Positions 7,607 through 56,405 of a stretch of DNA of 64,000 nucleotides are shown here, one piece after another. The translations under genes were made by a program, and so were the position numbers. The stretch comes from Candidatus Spongiihabitans sp. (GTDB lineage: Bacteria > Pseudomonadota > Gammaproteobacteria > Arenicellales > Poriferihabitantaceae): the NCBI GenBank assembly GCA_965237725.1, contig OZ250151.1, positions 3,497,283-3,561,282 on the forward strand, in the 5' to 3' direction. The notes below the pieces were generated by a model, which ran no database searches, was not told where the DNA came from, and saw nothing but the letters and a program-made list of their open reading frames with translations. The stretch's first letter is position 1; every line of letters begins with the position of its first letter.

Positions 7607-8296
7607 ATGTCGAAAATGCAATTGATTCAGGCAGAAGTCTGTCCCTACGCCCAGCGCACCCATATGTGTTTGCTGGAAAAACAGCTGGATTTTGAAGTCA
7701 TTGAAGTTGACTTGAAAAACAAACCCGCATGGTTTGAGGAAATTTCACCATATAGCAAGGTGCCGGTATTGAAGGATGAAAATATAAGGTTGTATGAATC
7801 GACCATCATCAATGAATACCTTGATGAGGTGTACCAGGATCCGCCCTTGATGCCCGAAGTTTCTGGTGATCGCGCTATGGCCCGAACCTGGATTGATTTT
7901 GATAACGTCAAATTTGTACCTGCCTTTTATCAGGTTCTGCTGGAGCAGGATCTGGATAAACGCCAGGGCATTGCCGATGACCTGGTCGAACAAATGCAGT
8001 TTATGGAAAGCCAGGGATTCTCCAAAGATGCCAATGGACCTTATTGGTTTGGTGAAAAAATCTCGCTAGTGGACCTGGCCATTTATCCCCACTTCGAGCG
8101 CATCGGCGTATTGGAAGCTTATAGAAATATTTCAATTCCCCAATCCTGTTCGAGGTTAAGGGAATGGTTGGCTGCCATGCTGGAAAGACCCAGCGCAAAA
8201 GCCACTGCTCATGACAATAATTATCACGTTGATGCATACAGCCACTATGCCGATGGAACGGCTTCTGGAACCACGGCCAAGGATATGCGTCGATAA
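7607..8296 (+). CDS. glutathione S-transferase (thioredoxin-like N-domain)
   Basis: CPYAQRTHMCL active-site region and KVPVL, ESTIINEYLDE motifs. I chose the ATG at 7607, preceded by AGGAGAGG, over the track start at 7541. Confidence 0.8.
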   Translation: MSKMQLIQAEVCPYAQRTHMCLLEKQLDFEVIEVDLKNKPAWFEEISPYSKVPVLKDENIRLYESTIINEYLDEVYQDPPLMPEVSGDRAMARTWIDFDNVKFVPAFYQVLLEQDLDKRQGIADDLVEQMQFMESQGFSKDANGPYWFGEKISLVDLAIYPHFERIGVLEAYRNISIPQSCSRLREWLAAMLERPSAKATAHDNNYHVDAYSHYADGTASGTTAKDMRR

Positions 8297-30592: not shown

Positions 30593-31486
30593 ATGAATAA
30601 GCTGTTTAAGAATGATACCCAGTTGGGTATTGCCATGGTTATGTTCGGGCTGGGTGTTGCTGCCTTTACCGGTTCGATGATGAAATTCCTTGCTAATGAT
30701 TTGAATGCATTTCAAATAACCTGGTTTCGATTTCTTGGGTATGCGCTGATTTTATTACCCATTGTCGCTATTCGTGTTGGACGATCGGCGATTAAACCCG
30801 GGCGAATAGGGATGCAAATTTTTCGCGGTGTGACTCTGGCTACAGCAACTACTGCATTTGTGGTTGGCGTAAAAACTATCGATTTTGCAGATGCCATCGC
30901 AATCCTCTATGCCTATCCGTTTTTGATTACCATTCTGGCAGTGTTTTTTCTGGATGAACGTGTGCCCTGGATCGGCTGGATTGGGGTTATTGGCGGGTTC
31001 GTTGGCGTGTTGCTGGTTATGCGCCCTGAATTCGATAACTTTAATGTTGGTTCATTATATGTATTTTTGTGTGCCGTGATTATCAGCATACAGATGATAC
31101 TGAATCGGAAACTCGGCTATCGGTCCCATCCCCTGGCGACTTCAATCTGGGGTGCGGTTGTTGCAACAATTTTGCTTTCTTTCATCGTACCGTTTTACTG
31201 GCAGCCTATAAATCTGAATCAATTCTGGTTGCTCTGTCTGATGACTTTTACCGGAGCGGTTAACCAGACCTGTCTGGTATATGGATTTTCAAAAGCCAAG
31301 GCCTCCACACTTGCGCCCTTTACCTATTTTGAAATTGTAGCTTCGGTATTTATTGGCTTTTTCATGTTTGGTACGTTGCCCGATTGGGTTTCCTGGATAG
31401 GAATCGGACTGATAATTGCCAGCGGATTACTGGTTGCACATTCCCTTGCAGGTGGGCACACTCCCCGTCGCATTCCGAAATACTAG
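30593..31486 (+). CDS. EamA/DMT-family transporter
   Basis: 297 aa with 10 TM segments. Confidence 0.75.
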   Translation: MNKLFKNDTQLGIAMVMFGLGVAAFTGSMMKFLANDLNAFQITWFRFLGYALILLPIVAIRVGRSAIKPGRIGMQIFRGVTLATATTAFVVGVKTIDFADAIAILYAYPFLITILAVFFLDERVPWIGWIGVIGGFVGVLLVMRPEFDNFNVGSLYVFLCAVIISIQMILNRKLGYRSHPLATSIWGAVVATILLSFIVPFYWQPINLNQFWLLCLMTFTGAVNQTCLVYGFSKAKASTLAPFTYFEIVASVFIGFFMFGTLPDWVSWIGIGLIIASGLLVAHSLAGGHTPRRIPKY

Positions 31487-31545
31487 GGAAACCCTGACCA
31501 AACTAGGGTCTACCTGGCCGACCTTCCCGTTAATAGTGCCCGCAT

Positions 31546-32457
31546 ATGAAAAACAAAGAAGCTACCTCGGCCATGGCGATGATGATAGTGGCAATGTTAA
31601 TGCTGCCCGGGCTGGATGCCATTGCAAAATGGCTATCGGGTTCAATTTCTTCCGGGCAAGTGACCTGGAGTCGTTTCGCATTTCAGATTCTTTTAATGAC
31701 ACCGTTGTTACTACGAACTCAAGGTCCCTGGTTCAATCGGACCCTGTATCTACATGCCGTCCGGGGCGCATTAATTGCCGGGGCGACGCTGTTATTTTTT
31801 AGTGGTTTGGCATATTTACCAATTGCAGATGCCATCTCCATATTTTTTATCGAACCGCTTCTGGTCACATTATTGTCTGCGGTATTCCTCGGCGAGACTG
31901 TTGGTTGGCGTCGACTCTCGGCCATTGCTGTGGGGTTTATTGGTGCATTGATAATTATTCGACCAACATTCGCAGATGTCGGCTGGCCGGTGATGTATCC
32001 CGTGGGGGCAGCAACCTGTTTTACCTTTTACATTTTACTCACCAGAAAACTGGTTGCAAAAGAAGATCCCATTCGGCTGCAGTTTTTTGCGGGCATTTTT
32101 GGATTTCTGGTTATGAGCGTGGCTTTGTATTTTGGCACGATTAATGATGTCGGAATTCTAAGCGCGGTATGGCCGACTCGTTTTCAATGGTTTTTGCTCG
32201 GGGGCTTGGGACTAATCGCCACCATCGGCCACATGCTGGTGGTACTTGCATACCGGCGCGCGCCGGTGAGTGTGCTGGCGCCATTTCAGTATGTGGAAAT
32301 TATTGGTGCAACTGTTTTAGGGTATATTATATTTGATGATTTTCCCGATCTGGTTACCTGGCTGGGAATTACTATTATTGTCGGTTCCGGAATTTATATT
32401 TTTCATCGCGAATCCCAACTACCAGGAATAGATTCAAATCTGGATCTTCCAGGTTAA
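31546..32457 (+). CDS. EamA/DMT-family transporter
   Basis: 303 aa with 10 TM segments. It lies in tandem with the previous EamA gene. Confidence 0.75.
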   Translation: MKNKEATSAMAMMIVAMLMLPGLDAIAKWLSGSISSGQVTWSRFAFQILLMTPLLLRTQGPWFNRTLYLHAVRGALIAGATLLFFSGLAYLPIADAISIFFIEPLLVTLLSAVFLGETVGWRRLSAIAVGFIGALIIIRPTFADVGWPVMYPVGAATCFTFYILLTRKLVAKEDPIRLQFFAGIFGFLVMSVALYFGTINDVGILSAVWPTRFQWFLLGGLGLIATIGHMLVVLAYRRAPVSVLAPFQYVEIIGATVLGYIIFDDFPDLVTWLGITIIVGSGIYIFHRESQLPGIDSNLDLPG

Positions 32458-32817: not shown

Positions 32818-33792
32818 TTATGACAACAACACTGTGGACCCTGTGGTAGCGCGGGATTCCAAATCACTATGGGCTTTAGCAGTTTCTGACAAAGCATAGG
32901 TCTGGTTAACCGAAATTTTTATGGTCCCAGAACTAACCGCATCAAACAGCCGGTTTGCGCCTTCTTCCAGTAATTCGCGGGTTGCAGTATGGGTCGCCAG
33001 AGTAGGGCGGGTCACATATAACGAACCTTTTGGTGCAAGGATGCCGGGACTGAATGGTTCAACGGGACCCGAAGCATTTCCGTAGGTTACCAACGTACCG
33101 AATGGTGCCAGTGAATCCAGGGAGGCTTCGAACGTTGACTGGCCAATGGAATCATAAGAAACCGCTACGCCGTTGCCGTCAGTAATTTCTTTTACTCGTT
33201 GGGCGATATCTTCCTGTTTGTAATTTATAGTATGGTCCGCACCATTAGCCCTTGCCAGTTGAGATTTTTCTCCGGAACCAACGCAGCCGATTACCGTAGC
33301 GCCAAGGTGTTTTGCCCATTGACAGAGAATCAAACCCACACCTCCCGCTGCCGCCATCACCAGGATGGTATCCCCGGGCTTAACTGCATAGGTCCGAAAT
33401 AACAGGTAGTGGGCAGTGAGACCTTTGAGCATCATCGCAGCGGCTGTTTGGTCGTCTATACCGTCGGGTAATTTTAATAACTTTTCAGCAGCAACGTTAC
33501 GCAATTCCACATAAGCGCCTGGCACCATACAATAGGCAACCCGGTCTCCAATGGACAAACTGCTAACGCCATCACCTACAGCCTCAACTACCCCTGCGGC
33601 TTCCATTCCCAGCACTGCAGGCATATTCGCCATGGGATATAAACCAGTACGCATATAGACATCGATAAAATTCAGTCCGATGGCGGTTTGTTTAATTTGT
33701 GCTTCGCCAGGGGCTGGATCGCCAACGCTGATTTCGTCCCAACTCAATTTATCTGCGCCACCAACTTCGTGGATACGTATGGCGTGTGTCAT
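32818..33792 (-). CDS. qor: NADPH:quinone oxidoreductase (zeta-crystallin/MDR family)
   Basis: GLNFIDVY, the AAGGVG nucleotide motif and overall MDR architecture. Confidence 0.8.
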   Translation of the reverse strand: MTHAIRIHEVGGADKLSWDEISVGDPAPGEAQIKQTAIGLNFIDVYMRTGLYPMANMPAVLGMEAAGVVEAVGDGVSSLSIGDRVAYCMVPGAYVELRNVAAEKLLKLPDGIDDQTAAAMMLKGLTAHYLLFRTYAVKPGDTILVMAAAGGVGLILCQWAKHLGATVIGCVGSGEKSQLARANGADHTINYKQEDIAQRVKEITDGNGVAVSYDSIGQSTFEASLDSLAPFGTLVTYGNASGPVEPFSPGILAPKGSLYVTRPTLATHTATRELLEEGANRLFDAVSSGTIKISVNQTYALSETAKAHSDLESRATTGSTVLLS

Positions 33793-33891: not shown

Positions 33892-34347
33892 TTATTCGGG
33901 TTCATCTCCGAGCAAATATCGGGGCCCGGAGCCAAGATTGGCGGCCTGATCGTCGGCGTTGTATAAGGCACAACGCTTTAACGACAAACAACCGCAACCA
34001 ATACAACCCGCCAGTTTTTCTCGCATAATCTGCAATTGACTGATGCGATCATCGAGTTGAACTTGCCAGTTCCTTGAAAGTTTTTCCCAGTCTTTTTTGG
34101 TGGGTGTGCGCCGGTCTGGCAGGGTGTCGAGGGCAGCACCAATCTCTTTCAAACTCAGACCGAGGGATTGCGCAATTCGGATTAACGAAATCCGTCTTAA
34201 CATGGCGCGATGATATTGCCTCTGATTGCCACTACCGCGCCTGGATTTTATCAAATCCCGGGTTTCATAAAATCGCAGTGTGGACGTGGCGACACCACTA
34301 CGCCAGGCAGTATCGCCAATACTCAGATATTCATTGGGTTTTGTCAT
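33892..34347 (-). CDS. soxR: redox-sensitive transcriptional activator SoxR (MerR family)
   Basis: MerR HTH (LSIGDTAWRSGVATSTLRFYE) plus the diagnostic 2Fe-2S cluster motif CIGCGCLSLKRC. Confidence 0.9.
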   Translation of the reverse strand: MTKPNEYLSIGDTAWRSGVATSTLRFYETRDLIKSRRGSGNQRQYHRAMLRRISLIRIAQSLGLSLKEIGAALDTLPDRRTPTKKDWEKLSRNWQVQLDDRISQLQIMREKLAGCIGCGCLSLKRCALYNADDQAANLGSGPRYLLGDEPE

Positions 34348-34381
34348 AATATTTGTACCGAAATTAGATAGTATTTTTTAC

Positions 34382-34412
34382 TTGACTTAAAGTTAACTTT
34401 AACTTTTATAAT
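34382..34412 (+). promoter_or_regulatory. SoxR-box promoter: TTGACT, 19-bp spacer containing the perfect palindrome TTAAAGTTAACTTTAA, then TATAAT
   Basis: Read directly from the 98-bp soxR/Rieske divergent intergenic region. The overlong 19-bp spacer with a central palindrome is the hallmark of MerR/SoxR-activated promoters. Confidence 0.75.
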
Positions 34413-34445
34413 CCCAATATTCAACCTGGTCCTGGAAATCTAAAA

Positions 34446-36068
34446 ATGAACACAATTGCCACAACAGCAGAAAAAATAGAACCAACCAAAATTACATCGG
34501 AAAATGAAATCTGGTGTATGACAACGACAATCGCGGAACTTGAAAGCGAAGGGATGTTAATGGTGCGGATTGAGGGCAAACAAATCGCTCTGTTTAAAAC
34601 AAAGGAAGGTGTTCGAGCCTGTGATAATCGATGTCCCCACGAGGGCTTTCCACTTTCTCAGGGAAGTCTTTCAGATAGCTGTACGTTGACCTGTAACTGG
34701 CACAACTGGAAATTTAATCTCGACACTGGGGATAATCTTTATGGCGGTGACCGGTTGCGCACCTATCCAGTCGAATTGCGTGGAAATGAAATCTGGGTAG
34801 ATATCAGCGATCCGCCTTATGATGAGCGTTATAAATCCATCGTCAATAGTTTGCGTGATGCATTCGAAGATCATGCCTATGATCGCATCGGCCGGGAAAT
34901 TGCACGATTGTTCAAAATTGGTGCGGATCCTCTGGATTCTCTGCGGCTCGCTATTGACTGGTCCTGGCAGCGCATGGAGTTTGGCTGGACCCATGCTTAT
35001 GCGGGAATGATGGACTGGTTAACCCTGTACGACGAGACCGACGACAAAGAGCTTAAGTTAGTCTGTTTAATGGAAAGCGTTGGCCACACGTCTTTTGACG
35101 TACTTCGAGAACCCGAATTTCCCTATACCAAGCGGACCGAGAGTTACGACCAGTCTGGATTTCTTGCGGCAATCGAAGCAGAAGACGAGGACAGCGCGGT
35201 TGCGATGATCCGCGGCGGATTAAAAGATGGTTTGGGTTTTAATGAGTTTGAATTTGGTTTCAGCCATGGGGCTCTAGCTCACTATAATGGTTTTGGTCAT
35301 TCGCTGATTTACGTTTCCAAGGCGGGTGGTTTGATTGAACGTCTCGGAAGTCAGGTTGCAGCGCCATTGTTACTGTCATTGGTGCGGGAACTGATTTATT
35401 CGCCCAGAGAAAATAAAATCCCCGAGTTCAGGCATTATGATACGGCGTTGCAGAAATGGGGTAATCATGACGGCACTGAACCAGATAAAGCGCTCTGGTT
35501 TAAGTTGGGTATAAATAAGGCCCTGGACGCTACGGTAAGTTGCAGTGGAGCGCCTCCAGAGTCAATTTACAGCGAACTGCTGCTGGCAAATGCAGTGAAT
35601 ATGCTCAGATTCGATCTTTCCCAACAGCAGAAAGTACATGTCAGCATTTCGGGTAATGTAGGCTGGCTGGACTTTACCCATGGCCTGACTTTTGCCAATG
35701 CAGTTAGAAAGCAATGCACGCGTTTTCCTGAACTATGGCCCAATGGACTATTACAAATGGCCTGTTTCAGTGGCCGCAATGCTGCATTTACAACAGCTAA
35801 AAACGATTTGGATCAATGGAAAATAGACCATACAAATGGAGAATTCGATAAATTAATTCAGGGCTTGTTCGATCACGGACAGGATGAATATATCGTTTCG
35901 GTACATTTGCTGAAAACTGCATTGGCGGTGCGGGAAGAAATTCAGGCATTGGATTTCGATGATGAAATTCTTGGCGCTACACTCAACCGATTTTTTAACT
36001 CTCCGTTAAAACGCAAACAGGCGCAGCGGACGGCCTATCAGTCTTTACAATTTGTTTCCAAAGAATAA
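34446..36068 (+). CDS. Rieske [2Fe-2S] domain protein with a ~400-aa uncharacterised C-terminal region
   Basis: Rieske ligand motifs CPHEGFPL (CxH) and CNWHNWKF (CxxH) lie near the N-terminus. I do not recognise the remainder. Confidence 0.75.
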   Translation: MNTIATTAEKIEPTKITSENEIWCMTTTIAELESEGMLMVRIEGKQIALFKTKEGVRACDNRCPHEGFPLSQGSLSDSCTLTCNWHNWKFNLDTGDNLYGGDRLRTYPVELRGNEIWVDISDPPYDERYKSIVNSLRDAFEDHAYDRIGREIARLFKIGADPLDSLRLAIDWSWQRMEFGWTHAYAGMMDWLTLYDETDDKELKLVCLMESVGHTSFDVLREPEFPYTKRTESYDQSGFLAAIEAEDEDSAVAMIRGGLKDGLGFNEFEFGFSHGALAHYNGFGHSLIYVSKAGGLIERLGSQVAAPLLLSLVRELIYSPRENKIPEFRHYDTALQKWGNHDGTEPDKALWFKLGINKALDATVSCSGAPPESIYSELLLANAVNMLRFDLSQQQKVHVSISGNVGWLDFTHGLTFANAVRKQCTRFPELWPNGLLQMACFSGRNAAFTTAKNDLDQWKIDHTNGEFDKLIQGLFDHGQDEYIVSVHLLKTALAVREEIQALDFDDEILGATLNRFFNSPLKRKQAQRTAYQSLQFVSKE

Positions 36069-36088: not shown

Positions 36089-37117
36089 TCAAACGATATC
36101 CGTGTTCAATAAACTGGCATCCCAGTTGTCTGGGTCGGTTAAATCAACGCCATTGATATTTTGAAAACTTAATCTTTGGGTATTGAAATTAGTTAGCAAA
36201 TAGGGGCGCTGGGCTGTTTCTATTTCGATGGATACTGCAAATTGGTTTTCCGTCAAAAGTTCAAGTAGGGATGCTGGGATTGCAACCGAGGATATTGCGA
36301 TTGGATTGTGTCTTATAGCTTTAACAATATATTCAACCACTGCGGCGTAAGTTTCATCTGTATCTGCGCTCAGTTGCAGAATACATATCGTATTGGAAGT
36401 TCGATTTCTTCCCAGAATAGCGTAACCACATAATTCCGAATTATCAGCATAAATTACCCGATACTCGCAGCCCGGATTCAATAGACGCCACTTAAAAAAT
36501 TCAGCAGTTTTATATGTGGTTGCAGGGTAAGGGTCGGATTGAACTTGACAATAATGAGCTAACTCATTTTCGCGTAATGGGCCGCTGGATAGTCTAATCC
36601 CCAAAGCTTTAGAAGCTGCACTGGGCAATTGATCCAGATCACTAAAAGGTAAGCCTTGTTTCATCGCACCTCCAGACCCAGATTTGTAATATATATCCCA
36701 CGGTCCAACGGTGAGCCAGTTACGCCGTTGGGATAATCCTGCGACAACAGGCCCAGGGCTGAGATTTATTCCAAAGTCGAATTTTTGCTCCAAAGCCAAT
36801 TCGAACAAGGCATCTGTCATTTTACTCACCAGGCCTCTGCCTTCGTAAGATTCCCGTACCACGGTGCCACCAAAACAGGCCAGCTTTTTTGGTTCTAAAG
36901 ACGCGCCAATTTTCCACTCCAGACCATAGGCATTACGAGTACCCACTACCTCTCCACTGTCTATGGCAACAACAACGAGGGGTTGATCAGAAACCGGATT
37001 TGCAATGTGCTTCCATTTAAATATCTGAGCAAGGCGCTGGGGCGTGGCGCTGGATAGGCGTTGGTATAAGATCAGAAGATCTTCCAGGTAACGAATATGA
37101 AATGGAACAATTTCCAT
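36089..37117 (-). CDS. GNAT-fold acyltransferase-like protein (two-lobed)
   Basis: VVRESYEGRGLVSKM fits the GNAT acyl-CoA-binding R/Q-x-x-G-x-G/A motif. It is the last gene of the 39027->36089 minus-strand cluster. Confidence 0.55.
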   Translation of the reverse strand: MEIVPFHIRYLEDLLILYQRLSSATPQRLAQIFKWKHIANPVSDQPLVVVAIDSGEVVGTRNAYGLEWKIGASLEPKKLACFGGTVVRESYEGRGLVSKMTDALFELALEQKFDFGINLSPGPVVAGLSQRRNWLTVGPWDIYYKSGSGGAMKQGLPFSDLDQLPSAASKALGIRLSSGPLRENELAHYCQVQSDPYPATTYKTAEFFKWRLLNPGCEYRVIYADNSELCGYAILGRNRTSNTICILQLSADTDETYAAVVEYIVKAIRHNPIAISSVAIPASLLELLTENQFAVSIEIETAQRPYLLTNFNTQRLSFQNINGVDLTDPDNWDASLLNTDIV

Positions 37118-37154
37118 AATGTCAGAAATTAACGTTTACGCTATGGTTTAGCAG

Positions 37155-38207
37155 CTATATTTTTAGTCGTTGGAAACCACCCCAATTTTCCAGTGGTTCA
37201 TAATTTTCTGATTCCAGTTGCAGGTCTTTTATAATCAGGCCAATCATGTCTTCGATAAGTTGGTATTTTAGGTTGCCCGAATATTCTGGCGTCATCGCCG
37301 GGCCACGATTACATTCGATAAGCCAGGGCTGCATGTTGCTATCGATCATCATATCCAGACCAATCAATTCGAAGCACATACGTGGGTCACCTAATAACTT
37401 ATTTGTTGTTGCCTGTAATGGTTCAGTGATGGAATTGAGGGTATCTATAAGGATTTTCTCAATTTGCGCCCATGTATTGGATCCGGCGGTTGTTTTTGAC
37501 GCATAGGATTGCCAATATTCAATGGTGCGACAATGAATCTCGGCGTCATAGTCCGGGTGGGTGGATTGGACCCCTGAATTGGTGTTGTACATGTAGTCAC
37601 TGACCAAAGGATCGTGTCCCGGTTCATAGGGAATGACACACAAGTCGGTACAACCTTCATTATATAAATAGGCGGTTAATGGATTGGTATTGACGATCAG
37701 AAGATACAGCCGAAGATTGTATTTACAGCCGTCAATCAAATGAACGTCATCGAGATATTCCTGTACCAGCCATTCCCCCGAGATCGGCATTTCTGACACA
37801 TCATTAACCCGTCTGATATATCTTCCCCAGGATCCACCTCTTGGTTTTATTAGCCATTGACCGCAGTCAAATATTTTCGAGATATCATCCTTTTGATCGG
37901 GCCAAAGATAGCTTTTTGGGAAATATCGCGGAAAATTGTCTTTATCGTGATTATTAGAATAGGCGTTGGAGAGATTTTGAAACAGCGACCACTTGTTGGT
38001 CAGTACAGATATGCCAGGAATATGGTTAATTCTCCGACCGGTAGGGATATGTTTGTAAAAATCCCGGGGTGGTTCTTTGTCGTTGTACCAGAGAATATCC
38101 CAATCGGGTGTTTCAACCTGAATTACGCCGGCGTTTTTGAAACCCTGGATGACAACCTGTGCGGATGGGTCGGATACAGGGCCGACAAATCCAAACTTTG
38201 TTGCCAT
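37155..38207 (-). CDS. tubulin-tyrosine-ligase (TTL/TTLL)-family ATP-grasp enzyme
   Basis: Four serial TTL-family blocks are present: RINHIPGISVLTNKWSLFQNL, WLIKPRGGSWGRYI, VQEYLDDVHLIDGCKYNLRLYLLIV and CFELIGLDMMIDSNMQPWLIECNRGPAM. Confidence 0.8.
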   Translation of the reverse strand: MATKFGFVGPVSDPSAQVVIQGFKNAGVIQVETPDWDILWYNDKEPPRDFYKHIPTGRRINHIPGISVLTNKWSLFQNLSNAYSNNHDKDNFPRYFPKSYLWPDQKDDISKIFDCGQWLIKPRGGSWGRYIRRVNDVSEMPISGEWLVQEYLDDVHLIDGCKYNLRLYLLIVNTNPLTAYLYNEGCTDLCVIPYEPGHDPLVSDYMYNTNSGVQSTHPDYDAEIHCRTIEYWQSYASKTTAGSNTWAQIEKILIDTLNSITEPLQATTNKLLGDPRMCFELIGLDMMIDSNMQPWLIECNRGPAMTPEYSGNLKYQLIEDMIGLIIKDLQLESENYEPLENWGGFQRLKI

Positions 38208-55261: not shown

Positions 55262-55538
55262 GGGATATTGATATTTGGTGGGTTAAATTATTGGGTGTAT
55301 TGTAAACTACCGCTATCAATTTTCTCGAATATAAAATTTTATAATCATAAAATTTTCAAATCTCCAATAAAAATTGATATAGTTACTGAATGTTGATTAA
55401 CAACAACTGACTGTGACCTTTTAACGACTACGATTTTAATATTAATTTTAATTTTGATTAATCCATAATCCAACGACGTCTTGGACTATTAAGAATTCGC
55501 GGACTATCAAAATAGCAAGTTTAAGAATATCGAAAAAT

Positions 55539-56194: not shown

Positions 56195-56405
56195 GGTACA
56201 CTTCACTTTGGTATTACCTGCGGTGTTCGAGTTGTTCTCCGAATCCCTTAGAACCTAATATTTATACTCGGGTGCTGTTATGAATGACCGGCGTGTATGA
56301 CCCCAGCCTGGCTGGTGCGAATCCCAAAGTTATTCTTTGTACCCACTTGGACCTCCTTGGTTCAAGGTAAAGTGAGCATACGGCACTCGCGGGTAATGCT
56401 TTTTA
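56195..56405 (+). ncRNA. ssrS: 6S RNA (SsrS)
   Basis: A non-coding gap lies in the conserved zapA-ssrS-ygfA position. The 3' part, ccttggttcaagg...cggcactcgcgggtaatgc, resembles E. coli 6S (CCUUGAACCAAGGGUUCAAGG...GCCUGCGGCGGCAUC). The 5' gtattacctgcg can pair with the 3' cgcgggtaatgc. An internal hairpin CCAGCC/GGCTGG is present. A T-run follows the closing helix. The ends are approximate. Confidence 0.7.

Follow-up and report, generated by a model that had tools for sequence, protein, structure and literature searches.

A conserved promoter of SoxR type between soxR and the gene for a Rieske protein with an orphan helical domain

To our knowledge, SoxR occurs widely outside the enterics, but the genes that it controls directly are known from a handful of cultured genera only. 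The 64,000-nucleotide stretch of the Candidatus Spongiihabitans sp. contig OZ250151.1 analyzed here (the window) carries a soxR gene back to back with a gene for a 540-amino acid Rieske protein, which raises the questions of whether SoxR controls this gene directly and what its product does. Our best reading, to which we give a probability of roughly 0.7, is that SoxR directly activates the gene for a redox enzyme that is fed by its Rieske domain and would act on redox-cycling compounds; within this reading the regulation is well supported and the enzymology is what we infer. The regulatory system is a further case of a known kind, with an orphan domain in the target protein.

Promoter and operator between soxR and the Rieske gene

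The 2 genes diverge across a shared control region of 98 bp (positions 34348-34445), as the first-pass annotation of this DNA had described. The soxR gene (151 amino acids) occupies positions 33892-34347 of the minus strand, and the Rieske fusion open reading frame (540 amino acids, 61 kDa, pI 5.1) positions 34446-36068 of the plus strand. By profile and alignment, the regulator is a SoxR orthologue: it scores 195.2 bits against the SoxR equivalog model TIGR01950 (curated cut-off 116.9; the next MerR-family model gives 55 bits), its MerR-type helix-turn-helix and dimerization helix exceed the cut-offs of PF13411, PF00376, and PF09278, and it shares 49% identity with E. coli SoxR over the helix-turn-helix and the Cys cluster. 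The [2Fe-2S] motif of this redox-sensing MerR-family activator, CIGCGCLSLKRC, aligns with CIGCGCLSRSDC of the E. coli protein, and the CX2CXCX5C cluster motif is kept in all 64 SoxR orthologues that adjoin the box described below.

In the 98-bp gap, a promoter facing the Rieske gene lies on the plus strand with every element where it had been placed: a TTGACT -35 hexamer (34382-34387), a 19-bp spacer (34388-34406), and a TATAAT -10 hexamer (34407-34412), from which transcription is predicted to start near 34418-34420. Across 35 aligned orthologous promoters the -35 hexamer hardly varies (1.7-2.0 bits per position), and the family consensus of the -10 hexamer is TATACT, as in soxS. A perfect 16-bp palindrome, TTAAAGTTAACTTTAA, is present at 34387-34402 and forms the exact core of the predicted SoxR operator CTTAAAGTTAACTTTAAC (34386-34403). 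This palindrome had been reported as contained in the spacer; it is exact over its 16 bp, but it is not wholly inside the spacer because its first base is the last base of the -35 hexamer.

SoxR-activated promoters hold their operator between -35 and -10 elements that are separated by a 19-bp spacer (PMC4411124). The E. coli soxR-soxS locus shares with the window the divergent soxR, the single palindromic operator between the -35 and -10 elements, and the 19-bp spacer, and the E. coli soxS promoter (TTTACC-N19-TATACT, in full TTTACC-TCAAGTTAACTTGAGGAAT-TATACT) is identical in register to the window promoter (TTGACT-N19-TATAAT). The central AAGTTAACTT is common to both, whereas the outer operator arms differ (CTTAAAG versus CCTCAAG). 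The 2 systems also differ in what is controlled: the E. coli target is the AraC-type relay SoxS, while that of the window would be an effector protein under one-step control. Compared by hand count with the SoxR box consensus CCTCAAGTTAACTTGAGG quoted in PMC4411124, the window operator has 13 of 18 identities, with the central 10 bp identical; one proven site in that study scores 14/18.

The palindrome alone is not rare, because the window contains 2 perfect 16-bp palindromes and mononucleotide shuffles of it average 1.1. What puts the promoter beyond chance is the soxS register, the adjacent bona fide soxR, and the conservation across species. When up to 10 mismatches were allowed, the 31-mer had a single match within the 64 kb, at 34382. 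A generic sigma-70 scan with 16-18-bp spacers did not flag the promoter at 34382, as expected for a spacer of 19 bp. Two candidates for further SoxR boxes were rejected, a 3-mismatch match at 7701 that lies inside a GST-like coding sequence and a match at 55436 that is AT-rich noise.

Conservation of the promoter with soxR and the Rieske gene

Among 80 genome loci with a Rieske orthologue, the box was found upstream of this gene in 34, with soxR adjacent in 30 of the 34, and a 35th, soxR-adjacent locus (L024) has a box split by an insertion. Each of these loci has a single copy of the box, which in every case closely precedes the Rieske gene and points toward it. In 35 aligned sequences, the 31-bp box reached 1.65 bits per position versus 0.23 in either flank, the flanks having fully diverged across the 35 box-bearing loci, and the 19-bp spacing was fixed in 35/35 aligned promoters. 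An independent pattern scan of metagenomes returned 45 contigs with the box, and the gene visible downstream in those that also carried soxR belonged to the Rieske family in 34/34 cases. In loci that are otherwise syntenic, the interval from a class II aldolase gene to the Rieske gene either contains both soxR and the box or lacks both, so that syntenic loci missing soxR miss the box too. Judged from these comparisons, soxR and the box behave as one module. The MerR/SoxR architecture proposed by the first-pass annotation is real, with an operator between the -35 and -10 elements, a 19-bp spacer, a promoter that faces the Rieske gene, and phylogenetic conservation together with soxR and the Rieske family.

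An intact box is absent from 44 of the 80 orthologues, and one whole major clade (28 loci) is entirely without it, which indicates that the function of the Rieske protein does not depend on SoxR. Apart from soxR, no neighbor conserved across the Rieske family was found; the GNAT and TTL-like genes located downstream in the window were not found beside homologues, and the surroundings encode no reductase that would be a dedicated partner. The idea of a conserved reductase or operon partner was rejected since soxR alone recurs as a neighbor across the family. Altogether, the comparative evidence gives strong support to the regulatory link between SoxR, the promoter, and the Rieske gene, and control of this gene by SoxR is predicted. 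The wiring itself is ordinary, the pairing being conserved in many marine bacteria.

The Rieske domain and the orphan helical domain

Residues 23-120 of the protein (positions 34512-34805, plus strand) form a Rieske [2Fe-2S] domain that scores 57.5 bits against PF00355 (cut-off 20.3). Its ligands C63, H65, C83, and H86 (CPH-X17-CNWH) are invariant in an alignment of sequences at 27-48% identity. The best sequence and fold matches to these residues are Rieske-type ferredoxins (T4moC, BphA3/BphF, and the naphthalene dioxygenase ferredoxin) and NirD, and Foldseek superposed the domain on the Rieske ferredoxins 5bok and 2qpz with a target-normalized TM of 0.88 and an rmsd of 1.8-1.9 Å. These proteins share the CXH-X17-CXXH ligands with the window protein; however, they are stand-alone proteins of approximately 105-115 amino acids that dock on separate oxygenases, whereas the window domain is fused to 420 amino acids. 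Both the length of 540 amino acids and the NirD and ferredoxin equivalog scores, which are all below cut-off (NirD, 54.9 versus 74.65; HcaC, 50.6 versus 150), place the protein outside the NirD and stand-alone ferredoxin classes.

The fusion is characteristic of a family of more than 3,400 homologues. In the best 150 of 562 clusters at 50% identity, members are mostly 500-600 amino acids long with the match beginning near residue 110-130, and the shorter entries among these 150 clusters are fragment-like. The N-terminal Rieske domain recurs in full-length members of the family, and the fusion of Rieske and helical domains is essentially obligate. The full-length AlphaFold2 model of the 540-amino acid protein has a pLDDT of 88.5 and a pTM of 0.85. 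A membrane protein was rejected, as no hydrophobic segment was found in the 540 residues (maximum Kyte-Doolittle value 1.25) and Foldseek matches to MFS transporters had a probability of at most 0.07; the fusion protein is soluble.

The first-pass annotation had left some 400 residues after the Rieske domain unassigned and had pointed to HMM searches and structure prediction on residues ~120-540. These now give a confident, all-helical model and no known family. The C-domain (residues 122-540, approximately 420 amino acids; positions 34809-36065, plus strand) was modeled by AlphaFold2 with a pLDDT of 90 and a pTM of 0.91 as an all-alpha domain of 22 helices. No Pfam family was matched at E <=10 in residues 122-540 of 59 sequences (58 homologues plus the window C-domain), and no NCBIfam family at E <=10 in the C-domain of 19 members. 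Phmmer against 1.84 billion representatives returned the same fused family alone; a second profile search, of a 5.8-billion-protein set, gave family members alone among the matches listed, without extending to remote relatives. No relative was found when PDB sequences were searched with profiles of the C-domain, and Foldseek of the C-domain-only model against the PDB gave no match (best E 0.63, query-normalized TM <=0.20). As modeled, the C-domain has a fold unseen among solved structures. A weak match to PF14407 (LigA-like/Frankia_peptide three-helix motif) recurred at residues 131-173 in 28 of the 59 sequences scanned, below the gathering cut-off (19-20 bits versus 48); PF14407 is related to LigA (PMC12353581). 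Internal duplication was rejected because hhalign of the 2 halves of the C-domain gave a probability of 0.7%.

The C-domain is rich in conserved residues. R150, G180, H183, H279, G284, H285, I288, P326, L408, H412, T415, A419, F441, R444, H487, and K490 are invariant, and the near-invariant residues include E210, R321, E322, and D323. The invariance of the 5 histidines (H183, H279, H285, H412, and H487) holds at 27-48% identity, and in the AlphaFold2 models each of them sits close to the start of a helix, among its first few residues, or at a helix end. No canonical metal motif was detected in the C-domain, that is, no EXXH pairs, no HD motif, and no 2-His-1-carboxylate catalytic domain.

Alpha subunits of Rieske non-heme iron oxygenases resemble the window protein in that one polypeptide combines a Rieske domain at the N terminus with a larger domain after it, and a logic in which the cluster feeds a catalytic metal site is plausibly common to both. 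The window C-domain is nevertheless all-alpha, whereas theirs is an alpha/beta SRPBCC domain with 2-His-1-carboxylate iron; no match to Ring_hydroxyl_A (PF00848) or a related model was obtained at E <=10 in any of the 59 sequences scanned, and the oxygenase matches in the PDB cover the Rieske part alone. In related loci, a genuine alpha subunit (Rieske plus PF00848) is encoded a few genes away.

Proposed function and alternative readings

We propose that soxR and the Rieske gene constitute a two-gene redox-stress module. SoxR, a [2Fe-2S] MerR-type sensor, would bind the palindrome between the -35 and -10 elements of a promoter with a 19-bp spacer, which exceeds the length suited to RNA polymerase. 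Once its cluster is oxidized by redox-cycling compounds (quinones, phenazines, or viologens), SoxR would untwist the spacer and switch on the single downstream gene, and it would probably repress the divergent soxR transcription from the same site. In the product, the Rieske cluster may feed single electrons to a histidine-rich site of the C-domain, probably a non-heme iron center made of H183, H279, H285, H412, and H487 with conserved E/D residues, and the enzyme may then oxidize or otherwise transform those redox-active aromatic compounds to which SoxR had responded. We infer that SoxR binds the operator and induces the gene, that it represses its own transcription, and that the C-domain binds a metal, and we infer the class of substrates as well.

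The reading as an enzyme draws on the parallel with the monooxygenases and oxidoreductases of small SoxR regulons in Pseudomonas and Streptomyces. Small non-enteric SoxR regulons comprise transporters and antibiotic-tailoring-like enzymes, the S. coelicolor example being a quinone oxidoreductase (PMC4146615). The known non-enteric targets (S. maltophilia mfsA, the small P. aeruginosa regulon, and the six-gene S. coelicolor regulon) resemble the window in the head-to-head placement of soxR and target at a promoter with a 19-bp spacer and, as predicted for the window, in autorepression from this one site (PMC4411124); the regulons are small and consist of transporters and of oxidoreductase- or monooxygenase-like enzymes (PMC4146615). 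They differ from the window in that no Rieske protein is among the targets described in the literature searched, where a paper connecting SoxR with a Rieske protein was likewise not found, and in that the window-type target is one gene family conserved across many marine Gammaproteobacteria.

This family would be a conserved, often the sole adjacent, candidate SoxR target across many uncultured Gammaproteobacteria associated with marine sediments and sponges, offering a concrete starting point for asking what SoxR guards against in these habitats. It would also provide a physiological context, redox-cycler stress, for a protein family with thousands of members, some 420 residues of which have neither a family assignment nor a solved structural relative. 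We tentatively suggest, as a conjecture that may well fail, that the helical domain provides Rieske-dependent chemistry with a catalytic scaffold of a new type. The 5 histidines would form a non-heme metal center in an all-alpha fold unrelated to the SRPBCC domain that all known Rieske oxygenases have, and in one large marine clade this domain would serve, under SoxR control, to break down or alter redox-cycling metabolites, for example quinones and phenazines. Were the helical domain catalytic, Rieske-dependent enzymology would extend beyond the one known catalytic fold; were it not, the locus would be a neat but unremarkable case of control by SoxR.

Other readings of the promoter are hard to reconcile with its conservation. 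That the arrangement is a chance palindrome, or is bound by another MerR-family regulator, is scarcely credible. Perfect 16-bp palindromes do arise about once per 64 kb by chance, and the identical operator stands beside non-SoxR MerR regulators in a few low-GC contigs (L103, L119, and L126); the box alone consequently does not identify SoxR, and the word canonical in the first-pass annotation has to be qualified accordingly. The pairing of box and soxR does identify it, and a full 31-bp element conserved between randomized flanks, its strict coupling to a SoxR equivalog that retains the cluster motif, and its single match in the window all speak against chance or another regulator. It is also very improbable that the box is mainly an operator for autoregulation of soxR, perhaps serving the quinone oxidoreductase gene too, with the Rieske gene constitutive or otherwise regulated and syntenic without being controlled. 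SoxR represses its own gene from the same single site in E. coli and in S. maltophilia, where soxR and mfsA are head-to-head at a promoter with a 19-bp spacer (PMC4411124), and in the window soxR and the quinone oxidoreductase gene share a strand, no terminator being predicted in the gap that separates them. Yet the operator is bracketed on the plus strand by conserved -35 and -10 hexamers that are aimed at the Rieske gene, 4 loci (L025, L042, L043, and L073) have the box before the Rieske gene without soxR within 4 kb, syntenic loci missing soxR lose the box as well, and the quinone oxidoreductase gene follows soxR in this window alone, the orthologues in the 5 of 80 loci with a tblastn match lying beside the Rieske gene where soxR is missing.

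A more serious alternative, though still an unlikely one, keeps the regulation of our best reading and makes the protein an electron-transfer or repair factor instead of a small-molecule enzyme. Rsx/RseC of E. coli re-reduces SoxR and acts as its off-switch. The Rieske protein might likewise re-reduce oxidized SoxR as a feedback off-switch, or its role might be to repair damaged Fe-S proteins or supply them with metal again, the helical domain then acting as a docking or iron-binding module. The Rieske domain is indeed closest to carrier ferredoxins (T4moC, BphA3, and the NDO ferredoxin) and NirD and less close to oxygenase alpha subunits, the oxygenase catalytic domain is absent, and the tight pairing of one regulator with one gene would suit a dedicated feedback partner. 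However, more than half of the sampled family members, including the whole major clade, are without an adjacent soxR or box, which argues against a partner dedicated to SoxR, and 5 invariant histidines together with conserved R, E, D, and K residues in 420 amino acids are more what one expects of an active site than of a docking surface.

The quinone oxidoreductase gene that the annotation had noted just downstream of soxR was confirmed as an NADPH:quinone oxidoreductase of the MDR family (32818-33792, minus strand; NF008024, 391 bits versus a cut-off of 348). It lies 99 bp downstream of soxR on the same strand, and no terminator-like site was predicted between the 2 genes. It is possibly co-transcribed with soxR or a co-functional neighbor, a putative member of the same unit. 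With the window's quinone oxidoreductase as query, tblastn gave matches in 5 of the 80 loci. An orthologue directly adjoins the Rieske gene in L001, L002, L005, L006, and L045, and ORF clustering places quinone oxidoreductase orthologues beside the Rieske gene in soxR-less loci.

A SoxR-type control region

The soxR gene (33892-34347, minus strand) and the Rieske gene, an ORF of 540 codons (34446-36068, plus strand), are separated by 98 bp. As the first-pass annotation had claimed, a promoter can be read in this divergent gap on the plus strand, with the -35 hexamer TTGACT at 34382-34387 and the -10 hexamer TATAAT at 34407-34412, separated by a 19-bp spacer. The exact palindrome that had been assigned to the spacer is also present (TTAAAGTTAACTTTAA, 34387-34402), except that its first base is the last of the -35 hexamer. 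Perfect 16-bp palindromes occur twice in the window against a shuffle mean of 1.1; such a palindrome is thus not improbable by itself, and its significance rests on its sequence, position and conservation. As expected, a generic sigma-70 scan limited to 16-18-bp spacers did not report the promoter. Compared with the E. coli K-12 soxS promoter (TTTACC-TCAAGTTAACTTGAGGAAT-TATACT), the window promoter has the same register of -35, 19-bp spacer and -10, and the central AAGTTAACTT is identical. The operator agrees with the published SoxR box consensus CCTCAAGTTAACTTGAGG at 13 of 18 positions (hand count), and an experimentally proven SoxR site in S. maltophilia at 14 of 18 (PMC4411124). Judged by its sequence, the control region is a typical example of the SoxR/MerR class of activated promoters. 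A weak soxR promoter is predicted on the minus strand (TTAACT-17 bp-TACTAT), where it overlaps the operator; its sequence is not conserved. In the SoxR paradigm, the regulator binds its operator in either redox state and represses the divergent soxR promoter from the same site, and, once redox-cycling compounds have oxidised its [2Fe-2S] cluster, the over-long spacer is remodelled to allow initiation by RNA polymerase (PMC4411124, PMC4146615). Elsewhere in the window, the sequence TTGAAGTTGACTTGAA (7701-7716) has 3 mismatches to the SoxR box; it lies inside a glutathione-S-transferase-like CDS and was judged a chance match.

The 151-aa regulator matched the SoxR equivalog TIGR01950 with 195 bits (cut-off 116.9), the next MerR-family model scoring 55 bits. 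It is 49% identical to E. coli SoxR across the HTH, the dimerisation helix and the cluster motif, which reads CIGCGCLSLKRC in the window protein and CIGCGCLSRSDC in E. coli, and it passed every sequence-level test of SoxR membership. Among the SoxR orthologues whose sequence extends over the cluster region, all 64 keep the CX2CXCX5C pattern. The 3 residues ahead of the last cluster Cys vary widely among the target-linked SoxR proteins (LKR, LTH, MKN, LKN, MQN and others, in orthologues from loci L003-L125); in other species, these positions have been linked to the tuning of SoxR sensitivity. Because the divergent partner of soxR is not of the AraC/SoxS type, any control of it would be direct.

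Conservation of the box, soxR and the Rieske gene

Scanning one genome per species yielded 80 loci with homologues at 51-69% identity, almost all in marine Gammaproteobacteria MAGs (Arenicellales, 'Poriferihabitaceae', Woeseiaceae and others) together with some Alphaproteobacteria; the closest relatives of the window Rieske protein are found in Arenicellales and 'Poriferihabitaceae' MAGs. The intact 31-bp element from -35 to -10 (the box, consensus TTGACTTAAAGTTAACTTTAACTTTTATACT) lies directly upstream of the Rieske gene and faces it in 34 of the 80 loci, and was found at no other place within these 34 loci (4-10 kb each). Divergently adjacent to it is soxR in 30 of the 34 (28 complete and 2 cut at contig ends), and in the other 4 (L025, L042, L043 and L073) no soxR lies inside 4 kb. 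The information content of 35 aligned promoters was 1.65 bits per position for the box and 0.23 for the 25-bp flanks on both sides, a pattern that reads as classic phylogenetic footprinting. The claim of a MerR/SoxR-type promoter facing the Rieske gene is thus upheld by the soxS-like register, the adjacent soxR equivalog and the retention of the box across loci. All regulatory claims made here are comparative.

An independent exact-pattern scan of metagenomes returned 45 contigs, some of which may duplicate genome loci: in 34 the pattern is flanked by soxR and the Rieske family, in 5 by soxR and the contig end, and in 6 by something else. The Rieske family is therefore present in every one of the 34 contigs that have soxR and in which the downstream gene can be read, which points to this family as the target. 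The operator is not unique to SoxR, because in low-GC metagenome contigs (L103 and L119/L126) the same 29-bp box pattern adjoins MerR-family genes of 124-150 aa without the Cys cluster, so that the half-sites CTTAAAG/CTTTAAG are common to more than SoxR. The divergent partners there are an aldo/keto reductase or a 583-aa ORF that is transketolase- or DXS-like by eye.

A neighbour-joining tree divides the protein family into two major clades. Only one of these has the box, in 36 of its 53 members (window and L024 counted); none of the 28 members of the other, among them the alphaproteobacterial ones, has it. In the box-bearing clade, soxR and the box behave as one unit: in genome loci L004, L009, L012, L016, L019, L021 and L024 they have a class II aldolase gene on one side and the Rieske gene on the other, and both are absent from L008, L015, L029, L041, L050 and L076, where the aldolase gene ends 19-39 bp ahead of the Rieske gene. 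Directly upstream, many of the aldolase-syntenic loci encode a canonical Rieske oxygenase alpha subunit together with a luciferase-like monooxygenase.

Locus L024 (CALJQI010000317.1, approximately 1871-2148) is a further soxR-adjacent locus in which an insertion of approximately 190 bp interrupts the box precisely at its central GTTAAC. With its terminal inverted repeats (GGAAGCTCTGCATAACT...AGTTATGCAGAGATTCC) and a TTAA on either side, the inserted DNA resembles a MITE that has duplicated a TTAA target; as the box is split, the locus would represent a natural knockout of the operator.

The Rieske protein and its C-terminal domain

Residues 23-120 of the target form a Rieske domain (PF00355, 57.5 bits) with the ligands C63, H65, C83 and H86 (CPH-X17-CNWH). 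Stand-alone Rieske ferredoxins (T4moC, BphA3 and the naphthalene/nitrotoluene dioxygenase ferredoxins) and NirD are closest by sequence and fold; the curated equivalog scores for this part were all under their cut-offs, and the target is neither a stand-alone Rieske ferredoxin nor NirD. Because it failed the test for the catalytic domain, the protein also falls outside the Rieske oxygenase alpha-subunit family. In the literature that could be searched, no SoxR regulon was reported to contain a Rieske protein.

The first-pass annotation could not assign the C-terminal 400 or so residues, and HMM searches, structure prediction and Foldseek on residues ~122-540 bore this out. Dozens of members had no Pfam or NCBIfam match in this region even at E up to 10, other than recurrent sub-threshold matches to PF14407 (Frankia_peptide) at residues 131-173 (34836-34964) in 28 of 59 sequences scanned; this family is related to a LigA-like three-helix motif in a recent ECOD curation paper (PMC12353581). 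A phmmer search of 1.84 billion representatives with the C-domain retrieved 562 clusters. The best 150 are mostly proteins of 500-600 aa, with a match beginning around residue 110-130; the shorter entries are fragment-like, and the fusion therefore appears obligate. AlphaFold2 gave confident models of the full-length protein (pLDDT 88.5, pTM 0.85) and of the C-domain (pLDDT 90, pTM 0.91), the latter with 22 helices and no strands. Against the PDB, Foldseek retrieved only Rieske ferredoxins with the full-length model and nothing with the C-domain (best E 0.63, query-normalised TM ≤0.20). No internal duplication was detectable in the C-domain. The fusion protein is acidic and has no transmembrane segment, and no obvious signal peptide was seen in its N-terminal sequence. 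Invariant positions across 54 aligned members (27-48% identity) include the 4 Rieske ligands and R150, G180, H183, H279, G284, H285, I288, P326, L408, H412, T415, A419, F441, R444, H487 and K490, and those kept in at least 90% of sequences include E210, R321, E322, D323, Q437, R528 and Q532. In the model, all 5 invariant His sit either at the start of a helix, within its first few residues, or at a helix end.

We propose that oxidised SoxR would activate transcription starting at approximately 34418-34420 into a monocistronic Rieske gene; the gene that follows (36089-37117) is convergent with it. A covalently tethered one-electron carrier beside a large conserved domain with many invariant His, Glu, Asp, Arg and Lys residues would most simply be read as an enzyme whose active site is reduced by the Rieske cluster, and the SoxR context suggests redox-active aromatic compounds as its substrates. 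Tentatively, with a probability of roughly 0.3, the C-domain could be an all-alpha scaffold of a new type that catalyses Rieske-dependent chemistry. The main rival, in which the protein serves as an electron-transfer or repair factor, for example by re-reducing SoxR, seems to us unlikely because the soxR link is lacking in most family members outside the box-bearing clade. What makes the finding of interest is the target's orphan domain and how widely the soxR-Rieske pairing is conserved in uncultured marine bacteria.

Neighbouring genes

The quinone oxidoreductase gene that had been placed downstream of soxR is indeed there, 99 bp beyond it, and no terminator is predicted between the two in the window. 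In 5 soxR-less loci (L001, L002, L005, L006 and L045), all from the lineage closest to the window, an orthologue lies immediately downstream of the Rieske gene, and in the two that were mapped (L001 and L005) it is convergent with it. Two arrangements are thus seen, one beyond soxR (window, 32818-33792) and one adjoining the Rieske gene (soxR-less sister lineage). This neighbourhood gives a second, weak hint of a shared quinone-related role; an MDR-family NADPH enzyme is not an obvious reductase for the Rieske cluster.

On the other side of the Rieske gene, the minus strand (36089-38207) encodes a GNAT-like protein of 342 aa and, adjacent to it, a tubulin-tyrosine-ligase (TTL)-family ATP-grasp protein of 350 aa (PF03133, 149 bits), then a 249-aa protein without family. 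TTL-family ligases are unusual in bacteria, and the GNAT-like/TTL pair is not kept beside the Rieske gene elsewhere. Beyond the quinone oxidoreductase and a small zinc-ribbon ORF lie two tandem EamA/DMT transporter genes (30593-32457, plus strand); in one metagenome contig (L095, 582-1451), the same box precedes a frameshifted small ORF and then an EamA transporter. The window also contains a 6S RNA (SsrS) gene at 56212-56399 on the plus strand (Rfam RF00013, 65.9 bits).
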